Below, one piece after another: positions 1,437 through 17,495 of a stretch of DNA of 18,831 nt; the first letter of the stretch is position 1; every line of letters starts with the position of its first letter. Location: positions 1 to 18,831 of the forward strand of contig JBHLQM010000046.1 in NCBI GenBank assembly GCA_048884785.1, written 5' to 3'. The DNA is from Candidatus Thorarchaeota archaeon. GTDB lineage: Archaea > Asgardarchaeota > Thorarchaeia > Thorarchaeales > Thorarchaeaceae. A program made the translations under genes and the position numbers. Below the pieces are notes generated by a model, which saw only the letters and a list, made by a program, of their open reading frames with translations, searched no databases and was not told the origin of the DNA.

Positions 1437-2609
1437 TTAGTAGGTTCTAAATTCATTTGCCGCATCAAACATAGCCACTATGTTTTCTGCGGGCACCTCT
1501 GAAGTAATGTTATGGATGTTAGACGCAATATAGCCTCCACCGGGCATCAAACAGCTCATGTTATACTTGACTTCAGTTCTAATCTCTTCTGGAGTGCCAA
1601 ATGGGAGAGTTCTTTGTGTATCACATAGTCCACCCCAGAAGGTGATCATATGGCCAAAACGTTTCTTTAGGCTGCAAGGTTCCATATCTTTTGCTCCAAT
1701 TTGGACTGGGTTTATTGCATCATACCCAATTTCTGAAAAATGTGGGATGAATTGAGCAATCGCTCCACAACTATGGTAGTTGATCTTTATGTCCGCTAAA
1801 GAGTGAAGTTTCTCAGAGAACCTCCTTTCTATTGGTTTGATCAATGGTTCATAGATTCTCTCGGGGCTCATGATAGGACCTGCTTGCTCAGCCAAATCAC
1901 CATTATTTGACAGGATGTCCACGTAATAGGTGTCACCAAACTTGATTTCTTCCAGAAAGGTTGTAGTGTACTCAGTCCAATACTTCTCTAGCTCTTCCAT
2001 TGCAGCCAGAATCAGTTCTGGATTTCGATGCATATGCATCATAGCTTTCTTGAAGCCAAACATGAATGTCGTGTATTCATATATGCAACCAACTGGAGGT
2101 GTTGCGAGTGCATATTCCGTTGATTCTCTATACTTCTTCGCCTGCTCCCTTAGGCCCTTCAAAGGTCCTTTGTCAGTACCATCAGGCCATTCATATTCTC
2201 GAATTTCCTGAACAGTTTTCATCTCGCTGAGAGGATGAATCACTGGGTCGTAGTAGAGTATCTCTTCCAGGTCCTTCTCTGCACTATTCCCCCAGAATAC
2301 TCCAAACTGATCATAGACTCCCTGGAATTTTCCCTCTACTTCAGGAATGAATCTCTCGGGCTTTAGGGCGGATGGAGGATGCAACCAACGAATATCGATT
2401 TTGAAACGTTCAAGAAGTGCCTCAGATGGCTTTACTGCCTGTTGTACAAAATCACTGTAGTGTATCTTGGGATCATCGATGTCGAGATATTCTAGGAGGT
2501 TTCTGTAGGCAATAAGATGGATTCCTGATACATTCCCGCCCAAATCAAGGGGAGCCATATCAGGTTCCCTGTGGTCTAACGCCATTAATACGCGCTCACG
2601 AGAGTTCAT
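1437..2609 (-). CDS. Uroporphyrinogen decarboxylase (URO-D)-fold protein, MtaA/CmuA-like methylcobamide methyltransferase family
   Basis: N-terminal MNSRERVLMALDHREPD, Zn-ligand HSCG, ITFWGGLCDTQRTLPFGTPEEIR and C-terminal PGGGYIASNIHNI..VPAENIVAMFDA. It lies next to a corrinoid protein gene. Confidence 0.9.
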   Translation of the reverse strand: MNSRERVLMALDHREPDMAPLDLGGNVSGIHLIAYRNLLEYLDIDDPKIHYSDFVQQAVKPSEALLERFKIDIRWLHPPSALKPERFIPEVEGKFQGVYDQFGVFWGNSAEKDLEEILYYDPVIHPLSEMKTVQEIREYEWPDGTDKGPLKGLREQAKKYRESTEYALATPPVGCIYEYTTFMFGFKKAMMHMHRNPELILAAMEELEKYWTEYTTTFLEEIKFGDTYYVDILSNNGDLAEQAGPIMSPERIYEPLIKPIERRFSEKLHSLADIKINYHSCGAIAQFIPHFSEIGYDAINPVQIGAKDMEPCSLKKRFGHMITFWGGLCDTQRTLPFGTPEEIRTEVKYNMSCLMPGGGYIASNIHNITSEVPAENIVAMFDAANEFRTY

Positions 2610-2611
2610 TA

Positions 2612-2735
2612 TTAGTATACTCCATATTTTTTAAATAGACTCCAAGCAATTTCGAGATTTCGGACGGCAATATCCAGCGGTTCCCAAGGCCACTCACAAC
2701 CTGCGGCAAACATGTATCTGAACCAGGTTGCTTTC
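2612..2735 (-). pseudogene. C-terminal remnant of a second URO-D/MtaA-family methyltransferase gene
   Basis: The - strand frame reads …RYMFAAGCEWPWEPLDIAVRNLEIAWSLFKKYGVY* (TAA 2612-2614), resembling the MtaA-type C-terminus (GCE…P..N….KYG.Y). The frame is closed upstream by TGA. Its stop lies 2 nt before the intact gene's ATG. Confidence 0.65.
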
Positions 2736-2774
2736 CAGTTGCTACAAAGAACCCCTAAATTGATGAAATGGGCT

Positions 2775-2845
2775 AAACCAGCTCATATACCCTCTGTAAA
2801 AAAAGAATATTAGCTGGTTTCAAGTTTCAGTATACCAACCAGCTA
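2775..2845. promoter_or_regulatory. Three alternating AACCAGCT boxes in the divergent UroD/corrinoid promoter
   Basis: AAACCAGCT 2775-2783, TAGCTGGTTT 2811-2820 and AACCAGCTA 2837-2845 form two 9-bp inverted-repeat pairs sharing the middle box. Confidence 0.5.
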
Positions 2846-2862
2846 GAGAGTGTTGATTGCAG

Positions 2863-3492
2863 ATGTCACTAGAAGAGATAACAAAGATGCTTGTTGATTT
2901 GGATGTTGACAACATCGCAGCAACTGCTCGACAGATTATTGATGGCGGTACTGATCCTCAAGAAGTCTTGAAAGCACTTACCACGGGAATGAATGAAGTG
3001 GGAAATAAGTATGAGCAGGGTGAGTATTTTCTCACAGAGCTGGTGCTTGCAGGTGAAACAATGAAAGAAGCTTTTGCAGTCATCAAGCCACGCCTTGCTC
3101 TAGATGAAACAGGAGCCAGAAAGCCTGTGGTGATTGCGACAGTAAAGGGCGATAATCACGATATCGGGAAGAACATTCTTGGCACTATGCTCATCTCTGC
3201 AGGATATGATGTCATTGATCTTGGAATAGATGTTTCAAAAGAAACGATTGTTGAAACAGTAAAGAAGCACAATGTGAAAGTAGTCGCTTTGAGCTGTCTG
3301 TTAACAATGACGATTAAAGAGATATCAGCAGTTAATGATGCATTGAGAGAGGCAGGCCTGAGAGACAAGGTTCGACTCATTGTTGGAGGTGCTCCTTTGA
3401 GCATGGAGCTTGCGAGAAATCTTGGAGCAGATGATTATGGTGCTGATGCAATTGATGGGGTGAAAAGAATAGGTGCGTTATTGGAGCGATAG
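2863..3492 (+). CDS. Methyltransferase-cognate corrinoid (B12-binding) protein, MttC/MtbC-like
   Basis: Cap domain (GMNEVGNKYEQGEYFLTEL) plus B12 motif GDNHDIGKN…SCLLT…IVGGAP. The start is ATG 2863 or TTG 2857. Confidence 0.93.
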   Translation: MSLEEITKMLVDLDVDNIAATARQIIDGGTDPQEVLKALTTGMNEVGNKYEQGEYFLTELVLAGETMKEAFAVIKPRLALDETGARKPVVIATVKGDNHDIGKNILGTMLISAGYDVIDLGIDVSKETIVETVKKHNVKVVALSCLLTMTIKEISAVNDALREAGLRDKVRLIVGGAPLSMELARNLGADDYGADAIDGVKRIGALLER

Positions 3493-7152: not shown

Positions 7153-9849
7153 TTACGGAATCGCGGGTTCAGTTGCGTTGTCTTCCTCGTACTGTTTAGG
7201 ATCTGCTTCAAAGGTTTCTTTACAATACTGATTGCAGAAGTAATAGCGCTTACCGTTGTAATCGCTATAGAGGTCAGCAGTAGCAATCTCTACCTTCATT
7301 TTGCATATAGGGTCAATAGCAACGTCTCCCTCTTGATAGGCTGCAATCGGCGTATCGACTAGTGGTTCAGAGTTTTTCTCTGTTTTGAAGCGGTTCAGAG
7401 TCAGAGCATTAGCAACAACGCTTACACTTGATAGCGCCATTGCAAGCCCTGCAAATTCAGGCCTCAAGACTAAACCAGCTGATGGGAATAAAAGCCCCGC
7501 AGCAATTGGTAAAAGCACAATATTATATATTAATGCCCAGAAGAACCCTTGTTTTATTTTGGACATTGTACGGCTGCCCAACTGAATTCCTGTGACTACA
7601 TCGAGTAGGTCATCCTTGACCAATACAATATCTCCTGTTTCAACTGAAACGTCGGTTCCTGATCCCAGAGCAATTCCTACATCTGCTTGTGCTAGAGCTA
7701 CTGCATCGTTTACACCATCACCGGCCATTGCTACAATTCGATTTTCACTCTGTAGCTCCTTGATTTTCTCAGCCTTATCAGCCGGTAGGACTTCTGCTAA
7801 TACTCTCTTAATACCAACAGTTTCTGCTATGGATAGAGCAGTTGCTTCTTTATCGCCTGTGATCATCCAAACCTCTATACCCATTTCCTTGAGTTTATCA
7901 ACAGCACGTATTGAGGAATCCTTGAGCTTGTCAGCAATTGCAATCAGTGCGAGCATGCGTCCATCAATAGCTGCAAAGACAGTCGTCTTTCCTTTCTCCT
8001 GTAACTTAATCCCTTGTGCTTCAGCATCAAGAATATCCACAGAATTTTCCCTCATGAACCTGTCATTGCCTATAATCACTAACTGGCCTTCGACTGAAGC
8101 TTGCACTCCTCTTCCTGTAGTTGAGATAAAGTCAGAAGCAGATGGGATTTCAATGTTAAGTTTCTCGGTGTATTGTACAATCGCTTCAGCAAGGGGATGT
8201 TCACTATTCTTTTCCACTGATGAGATAAGACGCAAAGCTTCTCCTTCACTGAAATCGTCATAGGTAATAATGTCTGTTACTGTTGGTTTTCCAATTGTGA
8301 GCGTCCCTGTTTTGTCAAATACCATAGTATCAACTGTTGGAATGACTTCAAGACCCTCACCAGCCTTTATCAAGATTCCATGTTGTGCACCTTTTCCAAT
8401 CCCAACCATTATCGCTGTTGGTGTGGCCAATCCCAAAGCGCAGGGACAGGCAGCTACAAGCACTGCAATGGTAAAGGTTAGAGATTGGGTCAATTCAACT
8501 GATAGGCCAGAAATTGGGGACACTATACCCAAGATTGGAGATATATAGTACCAAAAGATGAAAGTTGAAAGTGCTAAAACAATGACAATTGGTGTAAATC
8601 TGCTCGCAATTGCGTCTGCCTTCCGCTGAATCGGAGGTTTGTTTGTTTGGGCTTCTTCCACGAGTTTTACAATCTGAGAGAGTACTGTGTCCTTCCCAAC
8701 CTTTGTTGCCCTAACTTTTAACACACCATTCTTGTTGATGGTTGCACCTACCACTGTATCTCCTACGGTCTTCTTGACAGCTACGGGTTCTCCTGTGATC
8801 ATTGACTCATCAACACTTGACTTGCCGTCTATGACTTCACCATCTACTGGAACTTTATCACCGGGTCTTATGAGAACGATATCTCCAACCTCCACATCCT
8901 CAATTGGGAGGAGTAGTTCCTCACCATCTCGGATTATTGTGGCTACTTTCGCTTGAAGATCCATCAACTTTCTCATTGCTTTCGATGTACGACCTTTGGC
9001 GATTGCTTCGAGGGTTCTACCAAGTAGTAGGAAACTGATTAGTAGAACTGCTGAATCATAAAAAGGCATGTATTCATTCCACTGAGGGACGAATGTAGTA
9101 ACAACTGAATAGGTGTAAGCAGCACTTGTGCCCAACATTATGAGGGTGTCCATGTTTGTCGTGAAGTGTCGTGCGGCTTTCAATGCAGACTTAAAAAATG
9201 GATATCCTGCAATAAACTGAACCGGCGTTGCAAGAAGGAACATGGCAAGCTTACTAATTTCTTCAGATGGGAAGAGTGGTGCAAGGACTCCGAAGTGTAT
9301 TAAAACAACAGGTATTGACAGAATGACTGAGAAGGCAAGAAGGAGAGAATAAAAACGAATTTCTTTCTCTCGAGCTAAGGATTCTCGATCTGCTTCAATA
9401 CCTTCAGCTTGCTCGACTGCAATTCCAATTTTCTCAAGTATCTTTTTAACAGATTTGTATGTGACCAGATCATCATCATATTCTATCAAAGTACGATTTG
9501 TATCTTTAAATGCAGTAGCAGTTATGACACCATCTTCATCTTCTAGCGTCGCAATAATTTTATCCCAATCTAGAGTGGATGATGATTCACTGAGAGTTAG
9601 GGTCATAGTAGGTCTTCGTGCTCGATACCCTGTAGACGCTACAGCTTTCTCCAAGGTTGTTCTATCAACAGTATGAGTCTTGTATTCGATTACAGCCTTT
9701 TCATCGAGTAGGCTAACATTGGCTCGAATAACTCCTTCTTGACTTGTTAAGGCATTCTCTATTTTGGCAACGCAGGATGCACAATGCATCCCTTCAATAC
9801 GCATCGACATTCTAGATGCAGTGACTTCAGTTTCAGCTTTTTGACTCAT
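7153..9849 (-). CDS. copA: Cu(I)-translocating P1B-1 ATPase with N-terminal HMA, a degenerate second HMA and a C-terminal YHS/TRASH domain
   Basis: [36 protein letters not shown] and MALSS motifs. C-terminal DPICKM…YYFCNQYC. The start is placed at ATG 9849 behind a GGTGG SD, because the longer ORF runs over the operator and padR. Confidence 0.96.
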
Positions 9850-9880
9850 TTCTGTCCACCGTAATTGCAATTCAATACAA

Positions 9881-9913
9881 TGTCTTTTCCGATATATCGG
9901 ACACGATATATAA
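9881..9913 (-). promoter_or_regulatory. Operator 1 (TGTC-N6-GATATATC-N6-GATA) overlapping the copA TATA box and predicted TSS
   Basis: Core at 9891-9898 within palindrome TCCGATATATCGGA (9888-9901). TTATATA lies on the - strand at 9913-9907. Confidence 0.85.
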
Positions 9914-9956
9914 GATTTGTGATTGGACCAATTATGATAGGAAACCATTTTGACAA

Positions 9957-10439
9957 TTATAGACTCTGTTTGAACGCTTTCGCACAATGAACACAGCAAA
10001 AAGCAAGATTTGATCCATTTACTTCTTCATGGTGCGCGCCTTCGAAGATCCTAGCTCCACAACTTGCACATACCTCAAGACTGGACCCGAGGGCAGATAC
10101 AGTAATCGCAGCAAAACGTTTGAATAACTGGCCGCTAAATTGCTCTCCCTTCTTCGTCAATGAATACACAATCTTACGTTTCTTCCCTACGTCTTCATGC
10201 TTCTGGGTGACTATCTTCTTTTCTTCGAGTTCCTGCAAAAATGGATAGAGTGTTCCTGGACTTAATTTCCTCCCGGTTCGTTTTTCATATCTTTTCATAA
10301 GACCATAACCATGCAATGGCTTTTCGTTCAACATCAACAGGATATAGAAATGCGAGAAATCAGCCAGTATCTCATGAATCTCAGGATTGGGTATTTTCAA
10401 GTCTTGATTTGCTTTTTCATTTGTCATCTTTTGTGTCAT
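9957..10439 (-). CDS. PadR-family transcriptional regulator fused to a C-terminal TRASH-type metal-binding domain
   Basis: PadR wHTH ([17 protein letters not shown]…SPGTLYP.L.ELE…[11 protein letters not shown]) plus CASCG…LAFCCVHC. The likely start is ATG 10439 or 10427. Confidence 0.9.
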
Positions 10440-10612
10440 CCCATTGAAGCTCGAATGTGTTGAGTCACACGGATAAGGAATGAAGGCGTTCCCGCGTGTT
10501 ACATTTAGCCCATTCTGCAAAGCAGTTTCCTATAATAGTTGCCTATTTGACTAGGCTATTCCCGATTGTCCTTAGAAATGAACCACATTCTAAGATATCT
10601 AGACGAGTAGCA

Positions 10613-10649
10613 ATATAAATGTATCTTAAGGGATATATCCATAGGGATA
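10613..10649 (-). promoter_or_regulatory. Operator 2 (perfect TATC-N6-GATATATC-N6-GATA, 10622-10649) abutting the padR TATA box, consistent with autoregulation
   Basis: TTTATAT on the - strand at 10619-10613, 2 nt from the operator. Confidence 0.85.
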
Positions 10650-10682
10650 ATTAATATGAAACTACCCGGAATCCCACAGGAA

Positions 10683-10709
10683 ATGATTCAGCCATAAATT
10701 CTGAATCAT
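10683..10709 (-). terminator. Hairpin ATGATTCAG-N9-CTGAATCAT downstream of copZ
   Basis: Perfect 9-bp inverted repeat ~65 nt after the copZ stop. Confidence 0.4.
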
Positions 10710-10772
10710 CCAGTCAGAATTTTAAGAGCACTCAACAATGGTAAAGGGTACTTGTCAATTACTTTTCCTCTT

Positions 10773-11009
10773 CTATGCTACAACGATATATCCAAGGGAT
10801 TCTATGACATCTACAAGAAGCTCTCTATCGATTATATCGTCTTCGATTTCAACAACAGCCTCGGCTTTCTGAAGACTTACTTCAGCGCCTTTTACTCCGT
10901 CCTCACAAAGAAGGACATTTTTAATTCTGTCTGCACATGCGGGGCAATCCATGCCATTGATCTTGAAAAATATGTGTTTAGTTTCTTTCTCAATTACGTG
11001 ATCACTCAT
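10773..11009 (-). CDS. copZ: HMA-domain copper chaperone (CopZ/Atx1-like), 78 aa
   Basis: FKINGMDCPAC…GV..AEVSL…IESLGY. ATG 11009 is chosen because the upstream extension is the operator. Confidence 0.9.
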   Translation of the reverse strand: MSDHVIEKETKHIFFKINGMDCPACADRIKNVLLCEDGVKGAEVSLQKAEAVVEIEDDIIDRELLVDVIESLGYIVVA

Positions 11010-11020
11010 TTTGTATAAAC

Positions 11021-11048
11021 TATCAAATAGGATATATCGTTTTAGATA
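11021..11048 (-). promoter_or_regulatory. Operator 3 (perfect consensus) immediately upstream of copZ
   Basis: TATC-AAATAG-GATATATC-GTTTTA-GATA. Confidence 0.85.
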
Positions 11049-11239
11049 TATTTTTTTGGTTGACGACGCGGATAATAGCACGATAAGAAATCGTTCTGAA
11101 GATATCCTCAAGGTGTTAGCCTTTCAACTCTGAGTAAGATATGAGATTGCTCAAATATGAGATAACAAACTGAGTTTCCTGTCAGTGTTAGAAATGGATC
11201 TCAAATAAGAAAAGGAAATATAAAGCAGAAGACAGAACG

Positions 11240-11304
11240 TTTATATATATCTAGTGGGATATATCTGAATGGATAATATTGTTTTCGATATATCTGAATG
11301 GAAA
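11240..11304 (+). promoter_or_regulatory. TATA box (TTTATATA 11240-11247) followed by tandem operators 4 and 5 for the YHS-lonC-nif3 operon
   Basis: TATC-TAGTGG-GATATATC-TGAATG-GATA (11248-11275) and TATT-GTTTTC-GATATATC-TGAATG-GAAA (11277-11304). They contain the 16-bp direct repeat GATATATCTGAATGGA. Confidence 0.85.
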
Positions 11305-11327
11305 TACAAAAGGCAGAGGCAAAGGAA

Positions 11328-11483
11328 ATGGCTAGAGATCCAATATGTGGAATGATAGTGGATGAGAACACAACCAGGCTAAAGACGGTTCATAAAGGTG
11401 AAACTTTCTACTTTTGTATGAGGAGCTGCAAGAAAGCCTTTGACAGTGATCCAGATCGCTTTGCCATCGAATCTACAAATTAA
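11328..11483 (+). CDS. Stand-alone YHS/TRASH metal-binding protein (YHS-1, 51 aa)
   Basis: MARDPICGM.V…GETFYFCMRSCKKAFDSDPDRF. The start is placed at ATG 11328 because ATG 11298 lies inside the operator. Confidence 0.9.
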   Translation: MARDPICGMIVDENTTRLKTVHKGETFYFCMRSCKKAFDSDPDRFAIESTN

Positions 11484-11504
11484 TGATAGAACAGGAGAAC
11501 ATCG

Positions 11505-13961
11505 ATGAAGAAGCTGACATCAGAGGAAATTCGGGTTCGTTGTGATGATAGAGAGTTTGCATGCAGAACTAGTGCGGAGCTTTTTCCCCTAGATAATATC
11601 GTTGGACAGAAACGTGCTCTTGAATCATTGAGAATCGGACTAATGATAAAGGATAAGGGATTCAATGTCTTTGTTGCCGGTATTCCAGGAACTGGTCGCA
11701 CAACTGCAGTTTCAAAATTCCTTCAAAATCTTGCAACAAAAGAATCTAATGCATCAGATTGGTGCTACGTATCCAATTTCGAGGATCAATATTACCCAAG
11801 GGCACTTGAGCTTCCATCAAGCAGAGGGTGGCAATTGGAGCAGCAAATGGAGAGCTTCATTGAACTTGCTCAATTGACGCTTTCTGAGATGCTGGAAAGT
11901 GAGGAATATATTACACAAAGAGAGGAGCTTCTGAGGGTCTTCAAAGACAAACAGCAGGAAATAAGCAATCAAATGGAAGATGAAGCACGAAAAAGCGGGT
12001 TCGTATTGCAGGGTTCTAAGACTCGACTACTCTTACTACCACTAATCAATGGTGAGCCTCTCAATCCTGAAGCAAACACTCATCTGCCCAAGGAAATCCA
12101 AGACAAAATCGCAGAAAATCGCAAAGTCGTGGAAAAACAAATACGAGTGCTTTTCCGCAAGTTACGTCTTATTGAACATGAACTTCGTGAGGCTCTTCAG
12201 AATAAGGAGCGAGAAGCCGTGCTTTACGCCCTCTCTCCACTTATTGATGACCTTAAGGAGAAGTTCAGGGATTTGCCAAGGGTTACACAATGGATTGAGG
12301 AAGTAGCTGAGGATATCACCGAACATCTTCAGGAATTTATCGGACTCTCAGAAGTTGGTTCATCAGATGAGCTGAATTCATCGCAAGCGGGATCAATCCC
12401 ACGGGAAGATTTCACTGACAGATATAAAGTAAATATGTTTGTTGATAACTTGGGAGAAGATGGCGCGCCAGTTGTAATCCTTGCAAATCCTTCTTATAGC
12501 AATCTATTTGGCGTTATTGAGAAAGAACCACGATATGGCGGACTTAGAACAGACTTTTCTATGATCCGCCCAGGAGCCCTTCATAAGGCAAATGGTGGAT
12601 ATCTAGTGGTTCCTGCAATGGAACTTCTAACATCTCCACATGTATATCAATCTTTGAAGAGAGCACTTGAACATAGTGAGATAGTCATCGAGGCCCCTCA
12701 GGAATCAAGCAACTTCCTTGCTGTGAAGAGTTTACGTCCTGAACCAATCCCATTGGACGTAAAAGTAATTCTAATTGGTGAGGAAGAGATTTACCGAGAG
12801 CTTTACAATAAGGACCCCGAGTTTCGTCAACTTTTCAAGATAAAGGCGGAATTTGATATTTCGATGGATCGCACGCTTGAAAACATCCAGGTATTTGGCT
12901 CGTTCATTTGTATGATTCATACAAAGGAAGGTCTGAGACCTTTGAAGGCAGAAGCCATAGCAGAAGTAATCGATCATAGCTCTCGTCTAGCAGAAAGCCA
13001 AAACAAGCTCTCTATAAGATTCGACATAATAACTGACATCATTCGCGAAGCAAACTTCTATGCCAGCGAAGAAAAAAGCGTTACGATAGAAAGATATCAT
13101 ATCAAAAAGGCCATCAGTCAAAGATTATACCGATTGAATCTTTACTCCGAGAAGGTTCGTGAGCTTATTAAGAAGAATATCATTTTTATGGATCTTGATG
13201 GAGAGGCTGTAGGACAGGTAAATGGACTTTCGGTGGTCACTCTCGCAGGTCATGCTTTTGGACAAGCATCTCGAGTTTCAGCTAGTGTATCGCCAGGACA
13301 CCAGGTTGTGATAGATATTGAACGTGAATCAAATCTTGGTGGTCCGATTCATACAAAAGGAGTACTCATACTTGGGGGATATCTTGCTAATCGATATGGA
13401 AGAGAAAAACCACTTAGCCTTTCTGCGCGGGTTGTTTTTGAGCAGAGTTATGGAGGCGTTGAGGGAGATAGTGCAAGTAGCACGGAACTGTTTGCGATTT
13501 TATCTGCTCTTTCAGGCGTACCTATCCAACAGAGATTTGCTGTAACTGGCTCCGTCGATCAACATGGAAGAATACAGGCTGTGGGAGGAATTAATGAAAA
13601 GATTGAAGGATTTTACGAACTTTGCAAAGCAAAAGGTTTGACAGGGCAGCAGGGAGTCTTGATACCAAAAGCCAATATTCAGAATTTAATGTTATCAGAT
13701 GAAGTAGTTGAAGCTGTCAGAGCAGATTCATTTCACATTTATGCAATAGATAGTGTGGATGAAGGCATTGAATTCTTAACTGGTGTACCAGCAGGTACAA
13801 GTCAAGAGAATGGCAGCTATTTGCCAGGATCAATTAATGCATTGGTGGATGAGACTCTGGTTCGAATGGCTAGAATCATGGAAAAGCATTATTCTACTGA
13901 AAATTACAACAAACAAGAAATCTCTGCTACACCACAACAAGTGACTTTCTCTGGAGCCTGA
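11505..13961 (+). CDS. lonC: Lon-like S16 protease of the LonC / AAA_32 type
   Basis: GQKRA, atypical Walker A GIPGTGRT, DWCYV.NF, a long coiled-coil insert, I.PGALHKANGGYL, GQVNGLSV, catalytic FEQSYGGVEGDSAS and GGINEKIEGF. Confidence 0.92.
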   Translation: MKKLTSEEIRVRCDDREFACRTSAELFPLDNIVGQKRALESLRIGLMIKDKGFNVFVAGIPGTGRTTAVSKFLQNLATKESNASDWCYVSNFEDQYYPRALELPSSRGWQLEQQMESFIELAQLTLSEMLESEEYITQREELLRVFKDKQQEISNQMEDEARKSGFVLQGSKTRLLLLPLINGEPLNPEANTHLPKEIQDKIAENRKVVEKQIRVLFRKLRLIEHELREALQNKEREAVLYALSPLIDDLKEKFRDLPRVTQWIEEVAEDITEHLQEFIGLSEVGSSDELNSSQAGSIPREDFTDRYKVNMFVDNLGEDGAPVVILANPSYSNLFGVIEKEPRYGGLRTDFSMIRPGALHKANGGYLVVPAMELLTSPHVYQSLKRALEHSEIVIEAPQESSNFLAVKSLRPEPIPLDVKVILIGEEEIYRELYNKDPEFRQLFKIKAEFDISMDRTLENIQVFGSFICMIHTKEGLRPLKAEAIAEVIDHSSRLAESQNKLSIRFDIITDIIREANFYASEEKSVTIERYHIKKAISQRLYRLNLYSEKVRELIKKNIIFMDLDGEAVGQVNGLSVVTLAGHAFGQASRVSASVSPGHQVVIDIERESNLGGPIHTKGVLILGGYLANRYGREKPLSLSARVVFEQSYGGVEGDSASSTELFAILSALSGVPIQQRFAVTGSVDQHGRIQAVGGINEKIEGFYELCKAKGLTGQQGVLIPKANIQNLMLSDEVVEAVRADSFHIYAIDSVDEGIEFLTGVPAGTSQENGSYLPGSINALVDETLVRMARIMEKHYSTENYNKQEISATPQQVTFSGA

Positions 13962-14860
13962 TGAATATGACTAAGCAAAATATCATCAGCAAGGATCTGG
14001 AGGGATTAAACAAATCTATTTCCTTTAGAACAATGATAGCCCCATTAGAATCTCAGAGTATAAAGTCAGAAGTAGTACAATCTGAGCACATGATAGATTC
14101 CGACATGATCATCGAGTTTCTAGAAAATCGTACATACTTGCCTGAGTTTGATTATATCGGTTATGAAGTAAAAACTGTTGATCGTGTTAACGCAATATAC
14201 TTGATGATAAATCCAGATCCATTGAATCTCAATTATGTACCAAAAAACAGTCTAGTTATTTGTCATCACAAAATTTCGACACACAATAATCGTTTCTACG
14301 AAAAAATGCTTGACCACGCAAGAGATACAAACTTCAACATTTACAATTTCCATCTTGGGTGGGATATTATGGAGGGTGGAATCATAGATTCATTTCTATT
14401 TGACTTCGGATTATCTCATAACGATTTTGAAAGAGTTGATCTTACATATCGAGATTATCTAATTCCTCAACTAGGAACTATATTCAAAAAAAGAATACCA
14501 ATGAGGGACATAATCAATGGACTTCACATGATGAATGTCCGGCCATCAATTATCATTAACCCACAATGCAAGGTATCCAAGATTGGATATATACCTGGTG
14601 GGGGTTTTGTTGATGATATGGTCATAGGGATGGCGGATTTAGGTGTCGATGTCCTCATTTCATCAGACCATAATTGGGTTGTTGAAACTATTGCTAGAGA
14701 GGCGGGTATGACCCTAATTGAAATTGACCATTATCGCAGTGAACGTCATGGTTTACGAACAATGAAGAAACTTCTTGAGAACTCATTTTCAAAGAGTTCC
14801 ATCAATATCCTAGAGAATGTTGATGGAATGCAACAAGCCCCTTGCGATTGTAATTCTTGA
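13961..14860 (+). CDS. NIF3/YbgI-like dinuclear metal-centre protein (divergent, short form)
   Basis: LVICHH, IYNFHLGWD, KIGYIPGGG, DVLISSD and IEIDHYRSE metal-ligand motifs. TGATG overlap with the lon stop. Confidence 0.85.
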   Translation: MNMTKQNIISKDLEGLNKSISFRTMIAPLESQSIKSEVVQSEHMIDSDMIIEFLENRTYLPEFDYIGYEVKTVDRVNAIYLMINPDPLNLNYVPKNSLVICHHKISTHNNRFYEKMLDHARDTNFNIYNFHLGWDIMEGGIIDSFLFDFGLSHNDFERVDLTYRDYLIPQLGTIFKKRIPMRDIINGLHMMNVRPSIIINPQCKVSKIGYIPGGGFVDDMVIGMADLGVDVLISSDHNWVVETIAREAGMTLIEIDHYRSERHGLRTMKKLLENSFSKSSINILENVDGMQQAPCDCNS

Positions 14861-14972
14861 GGAATGATCATTCAAGAAGAACTATTGTTCGTATGAATTT
14901 TATGTTACATAGCAAAGTCTTGTTGCATGCTGGCTCGAGCGCCCCACTTCTATGACCGTATCTTCAATTCAC

Positions 14973-15878
14973 TTATTTTTGATCCATCTTTGATTGAACT
15001 CTCTTGGCCCGAACAATCTTTACATTAACAACAATGTGGCTAGGGTTGGAACGTTCTTGAATCTTGGTTTTAATGTAATAGAGTGAAATCAAAGAGAGAT
15101 ATCCAACATATGCGATGACCTCAAGGGCTGAAGGATTCCCATTGTAACCGAATAGAGCTTTTGCGAGTCCACCAATAAGACCCTTCTCATGTAGAAGTGG
15201 ATAGCTGCCATCTGGTAATAACGGAGGATTGATGTTCCAAAGTTCAATTGGACCTAATGCTAAGAGACCTACTTCTTGAAGCTCATGAATACCATAGGCG
15301 AGCATTCCAGCGGCAAATAGTACCAAGAGGAAAGAAGTTGAGTTGAAGAATGATTTCAGACTGATTCGCAATGAGCCTAGATAGATTCCAAATCCGACAA
15401 AGACTGCGAAAATCAACCCCAAAGCCGTTGCGATGAAAGTCGTATATCCTTCTTGAATTGCTAGTGCAGCTGTGAACAAGACTAACTCAACACCCTCCCG
15501 CAAAACAAGGGCAAAAGCAAGAATAGGTAGGCCGAGATTTCCTCCCACAGCCCTCTCCTCAACCGATTGTTTGATCCCTGTGGATAGGTTTGTACTCGCC
15601 TTTCTCATCCAGAATATCATAGAAGTCAAGAGAATTGCTGCAAATAACACAACTGACCCCTCAAAGACCTCCAGCATTGGTCCTTCAAATGACCCCCAAA
15701 TCACCGCCAGTACAAAAGCTAATCCGACACTTGTGACTATTGCAAGTAAAGTGCCGCTGATGATGCTGCGATTCATATTCTCTCTGCCAGTCTTGCGAAG
15801 ATAAGAGAACATTATTGCAATGACAAGGGCAGCTTCAATACCCTCACGCAGTGCAACAATGAATGGTGCAATGACCAT
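14973..15878 (-). CDS. FTR1/EfeU-family iron (or lead) permease
   Basis: Two REGxE motifs (LREGIEA, LREGVEL), ~7 TM helices and GIHELQE…LFGY. Confidence 0.93.
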   Translation of the reverse strand: MVIAPFIVALREGIEAALVIAIMFSYLRKTGRENMNRSIISGTLLAIVTSVGLAFVLAVIWGSFEGPMLEVFEGSVVLFAAILLTSMIFWMRKASTNLSTGIKQSVEERAVGGNLGLPILAFALVLREGVELVLFTAALAIQEGYTTFIATALGLIFAVFVGFGIYLGSLRISLKSFFNSTSFLLVLFAAGMLAYGIHELQEVGLLALGPIELWNINPPLLPDGSYPLLHEKGLIGGLAKALFGYNGNPSALEVIAYVGYLSLISLYYIKTKIQERSNPSHIVVNVKIVRAKRVQSKMDQK

Positions 15879-16036
15879 TATAGAATCCTCCCATCAATGA
15901 TTAATTCTTCTCCTCTGGCAGAGATTCTATTCGGAGAGTGCCACATTACACACTGTCTTTGGTGCTTCTCTGGTCTACGGACAAACGATCTGGAAGGCTC
16001 ATTGATCTCCTTCTTCAGATCCACAACTCTGCCCAT
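15878..16036 (-). CDS. Small 52-aa ORF coupled between the ubiquitin-like gene and FTR1 (unknown function or remnant)
   Basis: The GGAGGAGGT Gly codons of the upstream gene sit at SD distance from ATG 16036. Its TAA overlaps the FTR1 ATG (TAATG). Confidence 0.5.
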   Translation of the reverse strand: MGRVVDLKKEINEPSRSFVRRPEKHQRQCVMWHSPNRISARGEELIIDGRIL

Positions 16037-16040
16037 GAGT

Positions 16041-16361
16041 TCAACCTCCTCCTGTAGCAATCATAAACACAATTGTGTCACCTTCATTGAGTATTCTATT
16101 CATTGTTTCTTTTGAATCGAGGCCCATTTTTAGTTTCCAACCTGTTATGATTATTTTACCATTAACTATGATGATTGTTTCATTACTGAGGGTTTGGTTT
16201 TTCTTCTCATCTAGATACACGTCCAATGAATCACCAAACACACTCATCAAGTGACCAATCAGATCAGTGAGCGAAGTTCCTTCTTGAATATGAAATGGAA
16301 ATTTGTTGTAGTTTGATTCTTTAAGACCCCTATTCAACAGCTTGATGAAAACTTGAATCAT
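16041..16361 (-). CDS. Ubiquitin-like MoaD/ThiS/SAMP-family protein (106 aa, C-terminal GGG)
   Basis: Beta-grasp pattern MIQVFIKL…EGTSLTDLI..L…IIIVNG…LNEGDTIVFMIATGGG*. GGAGG SD before ATG 16361. Confidence 0.88.
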   Translation of the reverse strand: MIQVFIKLLNRGLKESNYNKFPFHIQEGTSLTDLIGHLMSVFGDSLDVYLDEKKNQTLSNETIIIVNGKIIITGWKLKMGLDSKETMNRILNEGDTIVFMIATGGG

Positions 16362-16464
16362 TGAGTTTTCCTCCTTTGATGGTTTTTGTCTAGAATACAA
16401 CTCTGGCATGTAGAAAATACTCGAGTGTGTCATTCCGCAGAATTCCTTCTTTGATATGCATCTC

Positions 16465-16647
16465 TTAACCACAGCAGCCTCGTCGGGGCATTGATACTGC
16501 TTTACGCTGTGAATAGAAATACGGGGAATCATCAAACCTTGTTTTGCATGACTGCTTGCAGAAATAGTATCTCTTTCCCATATAGTCAGAATAAAACTCT
16601 GTTAGGTTTTCGTCAACCTCTAATCCACAAACTGGATCTTTTCCCAT
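16465..16647 (-). CDS. Stand-alone YHS/TRASH protein with C-terminal GCCG tail (YHS-2, 60 aa)
   Basis: MGKDPVCGLEV…GKRYYFCKQSCKTRFDDSP…RRGCCG*. AGGTGA SD at 16655-16660. Confidence 0.9.
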   Translation of the reverse strand: MGKDPVCGLEVDENLTEFYSDYMGKRYYFCKQSCKTRFDDSPYFYSQRKAVSMPRRGCCG

Positions 16648-16761
16648 TGTTATATCACCTTCAGTTCCAGTTCTACTCTTGTGCCTTCAATACTCAAAAT
16701 CTTGGTGAACGAGTATTGCCATCCAATAGGCCAATTGTTCACCAAATCTCTTGATTATATA

Positions 16762-16846
16762 TTACCACAAGGATATATCGGAACTGTATTATTATGACAC
16801 ACTTCACTATATAAATATATCGTACAGGATATATCCTTTGTGGATA
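16762..16846 (-). promoter_or_regulatory. Operators 6 and 7 flanking the TATA box (TTTATATA, - strand 16815-16808) of the YHS-2/Ubl/FTR1 operon
   Basis: GATATATC cores at 16772-16779 and 16828-16835, 56 bp apart, with degenerate outer half-sites. Confidence 0.8.
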
Positions 16847-16866
16847 TATAATGGTGTTTGTCATTC

Positions 16867-16904
16867 AAAAGAAAAAAAGAGTGGAGAAGTGGGAATCTTC
16901 TCCA
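16867..16904 (-). terminator. Hairpin plus U-tract terminator after YHS-3
   Basis: TGGAGAAG-N7-CTTCTCCA (16882-16904), followed on the - strand by TCTTTTTTTCTTTT. Confidence 0.65.
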
Positions 16905-16945
16905 GCCTATTTAAGAATTGTACAAGATTCCTTAGGCTAAGTTTT

Positions 16946-17098
16946 CTATTCTTTCATTCCCACTTCTAGGTTGAATTTCTCTGGATTGCTGTCAAACATC
17001 TTCTTATGTTCTGGATTCATAAAGTAGTATGCTTTTCCCTTGTAAACGGATTTGATATGGGATTTGCCCATCATTCCACAAACAGGACATTTTGCCAT
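16946..17098 (-). CDS. Third stand-alone YHS-like protein (YHS-3, 50 aa), not in the ORF track
   Basis: Hand translation: MAKCPVCGMMGKSHIKSVYKGKAYYFMNPEHKKMFDSNPEKFNLEVGMKE*. It has an AGGTGA SD and its own operator pair upstream. Confidence 0.88.
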   Translation of the reverse strand: MAKCPVCGMMGKSHIKSVYKGKAYYFMNPEHKKMFDSNPEKFNLEVGMKE

Positions 17099-17214
17099 TT
17101 TTTTCACCTATTTTCCCGATCGCATATTCCTATTGGATCGTTCATTCGACTCTCCAGAAACACTCCGAATAAATGGAGTAACGGAGGCTCCAACGAAACA
17201 TTCAATCATATTTA

Positions 17215-17297
17215 TATCCATAGAGATATATCGAGATTGATTTATAATTACATCATGATAATATAAATCTATCGTATTCGATATATCCAAGTAGATT
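17215..17297 (-). promoter_or_regulatory. Operators 8 and 9 flanking the TATA box (TTTATAT, - strand 17267-17261) of YHS-3
   Basis: TATC-CATAGA-GATATATC-GAGATT-GATT (17215-17242) and TATC-GTATTC-GATATATC-CAAGTA-GATT (17270-17297). The cores are 55 bp apart. Confidence 0.85.
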
Positions 17298-17495
17298 TAT
17301 CAATGGGATTCACACTAATGCTCATGGGAGCACTGATCGGTGCGCTTTCCGAGTGCCTTGATGATTTTGCTCCCACATGACAGCTGCCAGATTCTATATT
17401 TGTTGGGCGAAAGACTGAGTAGCCACTCCCAGAAGGGATTTTAGCACCTTTGGACCTTCAATAGTAGTTCTATTCTTCGTGGAGTTGTGCTCTAA

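Follow-up and report, generated by a model that had tools for sequence, protein, structure and literature searches.

What brings a copper pump, a Lon-type protease, a NIF3 protein, a ubiquitin-like protein (Ubl), and an iron permease together in one archaeal locus is the question raised by a cassette of ~10 kb at positions 7153–17297 of the 18,831-nucleotide stretch analysed here (the window), which stretch is contig C46 of a 3.6-Mb, 91%-complete Candidatus Thorarchaeota genome (G000). The original prediction had read the cassette as a self-contained metal regulon in which one sensor would induce efflux together with proteostasis and iron-uptake arms. We conclude that the regulon is real and lineage-conserved, and that it varies the archaeal cop theme through a regulator–operator pair not described before; the kind of system is not new, since its logic follows cop regulons already known, and only one lineage has the unusual arm. 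The reading we prefer, to which we would assign a probability of roughly 0.7, is that a PadR-TRASH repressor controls a regulon for Cu(I)/Ag(I) stress, to which a damage-control accessory set has been added. Every gene named in that prediction was recovered by Pfam and NCBIfam profile searches with the start codons checked, and the five TRASH/YHS domains that it had counted within 10 kb are indeed present, in the CopA tail, the regulator tail, and the small proteins YHS1, YHS2, and YHS3.

One operator at six promoters

In its full form the operator reads TATATC-N6-GATATATC-N6-GATATA, that is, two overlapping 18-bp inverted repeats (TATATC-N6-GATATA) at a 14-bp period; relatives have operator arrays of three or four at that same period. 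The core, GATATATC, occurs 10 times between 9891 and 17287, nine times in intergenic DNA and once (10785) within copZ, whereas its frequency elsewhere in the genome predicts ~0.2 copies for 7.4 kb; the nine operator copies are spread over six promoters, with one or two at each. Genome-wide the core was present in 109 copies, a number in line with the expectation of a Markov model, and the extended operator pattern gave 20 strand matches versus 0.14 in shuffled sequences. Shuffled sequences, the fixed spacer, and a lineage-specific change in that spacer rule out chance or a TATA-box artefact as the source of the operator. Upon scanning the whole genome with a matrix, we found that nine of the ten best matches were the training sites—the one at 16772 being the weakest, with a leave-one-out score of 12.1 bits—and that the tenth, the only strong site outside the cassette, belonged to a decayed cop locus on contig C4, for which reason the regulon can be considered self-contained, as had been proposed. 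That outside locus (L055:8493–8831, corresponding to C4 16.5–16.8 kb) comprises an operator and a two-YHS copA remnant between a Rab-like GTPase gene and an MFS gene, occupies the position where relatives hold their cop genes, and is evidently the decayed native cop locus of G000.

The six operator-bearing promoters, which are predictions from the sequence, adopt two layouts in an alignment of promoters from 17 loci. In the first, that of copA, copZ, and YHS1, the upstream half-site and the TATA box overlap: the copA operator (9879–9910, core 9891), located by motif search, matrix scan, and promoter alignment, covers the TATA box TTATATA; the copZ operator (11019–11050, core 11031) was located by motif search and promoter alignment, as were all those that follow; and the YHS1-lonC-nif3 promoter (11246–11306) contains two operators, with cores at 11258 and 11287 and the TATA box overlapping the first half-site. 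In the second layout—that of padR, YHS2, YHS3, and, in relatives, nif3—the TATA box comes after the downstream half-site, so that the site covers the B-recognition element (BRE), as exemplified by the padR operator (10620–10651, core 10632), which lies directly upstream of the TATA box. The YHS2, YHS3, and nif3 promoters mostly have a second site ~55 bp further downstream, near the start, the pairs in the window being 56 bp apart for YHS2-Ubl-orf-FTR1 (16760–16847; cores 16772 and 16828, with the TATA box between them) and 55 bp apart for YHS3 (17213–17299; cores 17225 and 17280). Both layouts are compatible with repression by occlusion. Leaders of ~130–200 bases, whose length is kept across relatives, are predicted 5′ of padR (10430–10610), YHS2 (16650–16760), and YHS3 (17100–17210).

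The proposal of six transcription units, each with the same operator, thus stands with respect to the operators, whereas the units themselves are deduced from the sequence, and read-through past copZ and padR is possible because neither gene is followed by a T-run terminator. In the cassette copies compared, T-runs were likewise absent from the YHS1-lonC, YHS2-Ubl, and Ubl-FTR1 gaps, unlike the terminator-like T6–T8 tract 3′ of YHS3 (16868–16890, minus strand), which is conserved in every copy (all 10 distinct copies shown). The 52-codon orf between Ubl and FTR1 (15878–16036, minus strand), which ends on the FTR1 start, is open in 8/8 copies, but its sequence drifts near neutrality, with a ratio of nonsynonymous to synonymous substitution (dN/dS) of 0.67–1.0, and had no Pfam hit; we therefore discard a conserved protein, the frame being probably a translational-coupling spacer. 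As to nif3, the diverged copies of the cassette (G097, G008, L101–L103, L141, L143) hold it apart from lonC and with an operator pair of its own, whereas in G000, G011, and G083 the stretch between lonC and nif3 is missing and the two are joined; because of that pair in the older layout, nif3 is, as judged from these alignments, a direct target of the operator. Older cassettes also often have, between lonC and nif3, a MarR-like winged-helix gene with its own operator (L033:7129–7383; L101:9365–9622), which gene is absent in G000 and might represent a second regulatory tier.

The PadR-TRASH regulator and its reach

The regulator gene (9957–10427, minus strand) encodes a PadR winged helix (PF03551, E 1.8e-16) fused to a TRASH module (CASC-x18-FCCVHC), which fusion we propose as the metal-released repressor; the Pfam search gave no Lrp/AsnC family match. 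Although its TRASH hits were weak and below the Pfam cut-off, the CxxC...CCxHC motif is conserved, its five cysteines being unchanged across 12 homologues whose identity falls as low as 33%. Among 86 family genomes—whose kinship means that the counts are not independent—the operator was found in 29 of the 32 with the regulator and in 10 of the 54 without it, several of those ten having a related site before a different PadR-like gene. We further examined distant regulator homologues (42–51% identity; relatives of that group are named Bathyarchaeia), in which a de novo palindrome count upstream of the gene recovered the same half-site, with an N7 spacer, in 48 of 54 loci and in none of the shuffles. 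Since the same word thus precedes the distant PadR-TRASH genes, the PadR-TRASH protein very probably reads the operator; the site and the regulator also co-occur in loci devoid of accessory genes. The small MarR-like gene, absent here and from most operator-bearing loci, is excluded as the reader.

The spacer measures 7 bases in the distant loci (L165–L230) versus 6 in Thorarchaeota, and other Asgard families have AT-rich operator variants with ATATATAC upstream of the regulator. In one genus a related palindrome, ATATCACATGTGATATATCA, precedes a PadR-like-looking gene for 254–264 residues (L125, L127, L130, L132, and L134, near 1150–1510), the product of which is probably a separate autoregulated factor.

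The efflux core adjoining the regulator is of the Cu(I) type. CopA (7153–9849, minus strand; TIGR01511, 602 bits against a cut-off of 397) is a P1B-1 Cu(I)/Ag(I)-export ATPase with an N-terminal HMA domain (CASC), a C-terminal YHS domain, and the motifs CPC468 in TM6, DKTGT512, YN775 in TM7, and MALSS804 in TM8, whereas the stand-alone HMA chaperone CopZ (10773–11009, minus strand; MDCPAC; PF00403, E 5e-11) is lost or broken in several relatives. Of 31 distant metagenomic regulator loci, 25 have copA next to the regulator gene, as do 18 of the 20 from other Asgard genomes. The single PadR-TRASH sensor, single operator, and Cu(I)-type core that had been foreseen are borne out by the co-occurrence of operator and regulator and by the P1B-1 motifs of CopA. 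The small proteins comprise YHS1 (11328–11483, plus strand; 51 residues; PF04945, E 3e-12), YHS2 (16465–16647, minus strand; 60 residues, with a C-terminal GCCG; PF04945, E 3e-13), and YHS3 (16946–17098, minus strand; 50 residues; PF04945, E 8e-8), in which last protein CPVCGMM and FMNPEH replace the usual distal cysteines; of the accessory genes, YHS3 most often persists alongside padR-copA (G032, G084, G088, G099).

PadR-TRASH proteins form 960 protein clusters and occur in 99 of 301 Asgard genomes, so that a candidate copper sensor, together with its operator, can now be named for a large set of uncultured archaea. We found no paper on PadR with TRASH or YHS and copper, or on the cassette, in a literature search that left most subscription journals outside its range.

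The accessory set and the competing explanations

LonC (11505–13961, plus strand), whose best solved relative in profile searches is MtaLonC (4fwd, E 2e-91), has an intact Ser657–Lys700 dyad, the Walker A sequence GTGRT, a helical insert, and the LonC-type insertion CKAKGLTG; because the acidic residues of its Walker B are missing, the enzyme should take unfolded substrates without a tag. NIF3 (13961–14860, plus strand; PF01784, E 6.5e-18; TIGR00486 below cut-off), whose start overlaps the lonC stop, contains the dinuclear-site residues H102, H103, D135, H257, and E261, with the HH, YxxHxxxD, and HxxxE motifs invariant in 7 homologues, and by alignment its closest solved relative is HcgD. A second nif3 (61% identity) lies at L071:9845–15188 (G000:C26), divergent from a cluster of Acr3-like (SBF family), DGC-domain, and ArsR genes, and has no cop operator; it places this NIF3 subfamily in a second, metalloid-related context. 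The FTR1/EfeU-family permease (14973–15878, minus strand; PF03239, E 1e-48) has two REGxE motifs, REGIE at 11 and REGVE at 127; the P. furiosus protein PF0723 is another Ftr1-type permease.

Ubl (16041–16361, minus strand), a MoaD/SAMP/Urm1-like protein ending in GGG (TIGR01687, E 5e-4, below cut-off), likely has a beta-grasp fold, although its model is of low confidence, with a predicted local distance difference test (pLDDT) of 60.6, and its Urm1/MoaD fold matches are weak, the best being Urm1 at E 7e-3 and none reaching E ≤ 0.001. The subfamily is small (29 clusters) and restricted to Thorarchaeota. A Ubl paralogue (33% identity) ending in GG occurs at G000:C24 26089–26379, beside FAD-linked oxidase and Fe-S genes and with no operator. 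The NIF3 proteins belong to a mostly Asgard subfamily that is often fused to an N-terminal rhodanese (L070:4869–6068; P0005, P0012, P0020, P0026, and others), a fusion that hints at sulfur transfer and may bear on Ubl.

The complete lonC-nif3-Ubl-FTR1 set recurs in 8 other Thorarchaeota assemblies (G011, G083, G097, G008, L101, L102, L103, L141). The dN/dS values (0.09–0.20 for lonC, 0.06–0.40 for nif3, 0.10–0.21 for FTR1, and 0.17–0.62 for Ubl, the least constrained protein gene) place all four genes under purifying selection.

In the mechanism that we favor, the genes, the motifs, the operator with its tie to the regulator, the operon layout, the conservation, and the transfer are observed, whereas the binding of DNA, its repressive effect, the identity of the metal, the induction, and the part played by every accessory gene are inferred. 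In the absence of metal, regulator dimers would sit on the overlapping 18-bp inverted repeats and block the TATA box or the BRE; Cu(I) binding at the TRASH cysteines would release the regulator from the DNA, whereupon CopA would export Cu(I) while CopZ and the YHS proteins carried or buffered it. One Thorarchaeota lineage would then have gained a damage-control set in which LonC removed unfolded proteins with no need for ATP, FTR1 and NIF3 restored iron supply or re-metallation, and Ubl served more likely as a sulfur carrier or general modifier than as a tag for LonC. In anoxic cells copper causes protein aggregation and possibly ATP depletion (PMC9239040), a known toxicity that an ATP-independent protease would fit; MtaLonC degrades only unfolded proteins and does so ATP-independently (PMC3391209); and a metal-chaperone or insertase function has been put forward for DUF34 (PMC8469502). 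Those published properties make the accessory set sensible without proving its role.

A bolder version, which we offer tentatively and expect may well fail in some part, would make PadR-TRASH an undescribed and widespread class of archaeal copper sensor—in about one-third of the Asgard genomes sampled and also in Bathyarchaeia—that in Thorarchaeota directly induces a repair module: LonC would clear copper-unfolded proteins ATP-independently, and NIF3 would re-metallate damaged iron proteins with input from FTR1 and from a Ubl that carries sulfur. Were such a sensor and module confirmed, LonC would acquire its first physiological role and DUF34 an in vivo handle.

Several observations weigh against the favored repressor-and-damage-control reading. 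Activation instead of repression is known for some TRASH regulators (PMC7830388), and it would also fit the second promoter layout, where the site lies just upstream of the TATA box; none of lonC, Ubl, and FTR1 has its own operator, so that all three rely on read-through; and no ferroxidase or EfeO/EfeB partner for FTR1 was present among the called cassette genes. The predicted linkage of lonC, nif3, Ubl, and FTR1 to the regulator in other genomes, upheld within Thorarchaeota, does not extend to lonC, nif3, or Ubl beyond them: these three were found in 0 of 31 distant metagenomic regulator loci (≥6 kb) and 0 of 20 other Asgard ones, in tblastn searches with the window proteins that could miss very distant versions. 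Since, in addition, the cassette LonCs form one clade in the tree (support 100/100), the link of lonC, nif3, and Ubl to the regulator has a single origin. Cassette lonC is present in 6 and cassette nif3 in 5 of the 86 family genomes, versus 32 for the regulator; and the set erodes piecemeal, FTR1 being gone in L143, lonC split in L140, and nif3 split in L141, while L138 keeps Ubl alone of the accessory genes.

Those same facts of single origin and piecemeal loss, along with the ability of most regulator-bearing relatives to manage without the accessory genes, nourish the alternative that survives best, unlikely though we judge it: that beside a genuine cop core lonC, Ubl, and FTR1 ride as passengers, having once landed behind YHS promoters and being useful by themselves, with their copper control incidental. 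Purifying selection attests to working proteins and does not prove a copper-stress role. Passengers, however, would scarcely explain why nif3 has kept a dedicated operator pair across deeply diverged copies, why the layout is retained despite near-saturated synonymous sites (dS 1.1–3.1), or why, in the cassette-bearing genomes examined, the lonC, nif3, and FTR1 paralogues outside the cassette—present in the same genome—carry no operator. FTR1, moreover, stands beside distant regulators as well (L177, L186, L225, L229), with permeases 32–41% identical, so that its link to PadR-TRASH loci arose more than once, by independent recruitment; in the FTR1 tree the cassette copies were not resolved as one clade (support 48/59).

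Less probable still is a different or wider soft-metal stimulus for the regulon (Ag, Hg, Cd, or thiol stress), with FTR1 moving a metal other than iron, since CopA shows the P1B-1 motif set CPC/YN/MxxSS and pumps of the P1B-1 type accompany the regulator across lineages; the five-Cys, His-rich TRASH module nevertheless does not fix the identity of the metal, the P. furiosus CopR answers to Cu and Ag alike (PMC7830388), the nif3 paralogue adjoins the Acr3-like/ArsR cluster, and FTR1 is devoid of its usual oxidase partner.

A role for Ubl as a conjugated mark on damaged proteins that brings them to LonC is highly improbable despite the free C-terminal Gly-Gly of most homologues, the one ThiF/E1-family gene of the genome (on another contig), and the operator type common to the lonC and Ubl promoters, because the two genes lie in separate operons and are lost independently, which speaks against an obligate pair, some Ubl copies end in GGS or carry a tail past GGG, Ubl is so little constrained, the cassette holds no E1, and MtaLonC accepts unfolded proteins but is unable to unfold folded ones that bear a tag (PMC3391209). 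The single tag-and-degrade arm originally drawn for LonC and Ubl is unsupported, given the different operons, the L138 Ubl without lonC, and the degenerate Walker B.

History of the cassette and comparison with known systems

The DNA from 11.2 to 17.3 kb is ~90% identical to that of another genus (G011, G083), whereas ahcY, on the same contig, is only 77–78% identical to theirs; and both cassette flanks are syntenic with the same-genus G005, whose matched region lacks the cassette. From these differences, lateral acquisition from another genus is most likely, and the locus would then exemplify a 10-kb cassette moving between Asgard genera. The synteny of both flanks rules out a mis-binned contig. 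The copA gene is a mosaic, with 68% identity to G011 and 79–85% to others. Among the neighboring genes, msrA (4830) was discarded as a member of the system, having no operator and being unlinked in other cassettes; uroporphyrinogen-decarboxylase-like and corrinoid-protein-like genes, so judged by eye, occupy 1437–3492, outside the regulon; and a multicopper oxidase gene (L073:4480–6414) lies ~10 kb from the G011 cassette and was not seen near the other copies.

With the archaeal cop clusters (P. furiosus PF0739, S. solfataricus CopR/CopT-CopM-CopA, F. acidarmanus CopY) the cassette shares a TRASH regulator beside a P1B Cu pump and a chaperone (PMC7830388), but the known CopR/CopT proteins combine TRASH with an Lrp-like helix-turn-helix and not with PadR. 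No copy of the P. furiosus cop motif, TTNNCAWWWTGNNAA, occurs in the cassette, and outside it there is one 1-mismatch match, versus 3.1 expected. The copper-shock response of P. furiosus, driven by CopR, is likewise clustered and multi-gene and takes in iron transporters, ferritin, Fe-S assembly, and genes of arCOG class O (PMC7830388), so that a wide archaeal copper regulon with an iron arm is already known. The iron arm is consequently less novel than the original prediction implied. Text searches of the P. furiosus CopR paper turned up no LonC, NIF3, or ubiquitin-like targets (PMC7830388).

The LonC subfamily (Meiothermus taiwanensis LonC, T. thermophilus TTC1975) shares with the present protein the domain order, the Ser–Lys dyad, a degenerate Walker B, and the CX3GLXG insertion; unlike those two, however, the LonC described here is under a metal operator, and the cellular role of these proteases has been called unknown (PMC3391209). 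NIF3 has the dinuclear-site residues in common with the iron chaperone HcgD (MJ0927) of the DUF34/NIF3 family (PMC8469502), from which it differs in its divergent, mostly Asgard subfamily and in being operator-controlled within a copper locus. Direct promoter evidence would tie LonC and DUF34/NIF3, both without a settled cellular role, to a defined stress. Ubl shares with SAMP, Urm1, and MoaD a weak profile and fold match and the C-terminal Gly-Gly, though it has no cognate enzyme nearby. In bacteria, copper-released repressors of the CsoR/CopY type occlude promoters until relieved by Cu(I). The logic proposed here for PadR-TRASH is the same, even though the folds and the operators are unrelated.

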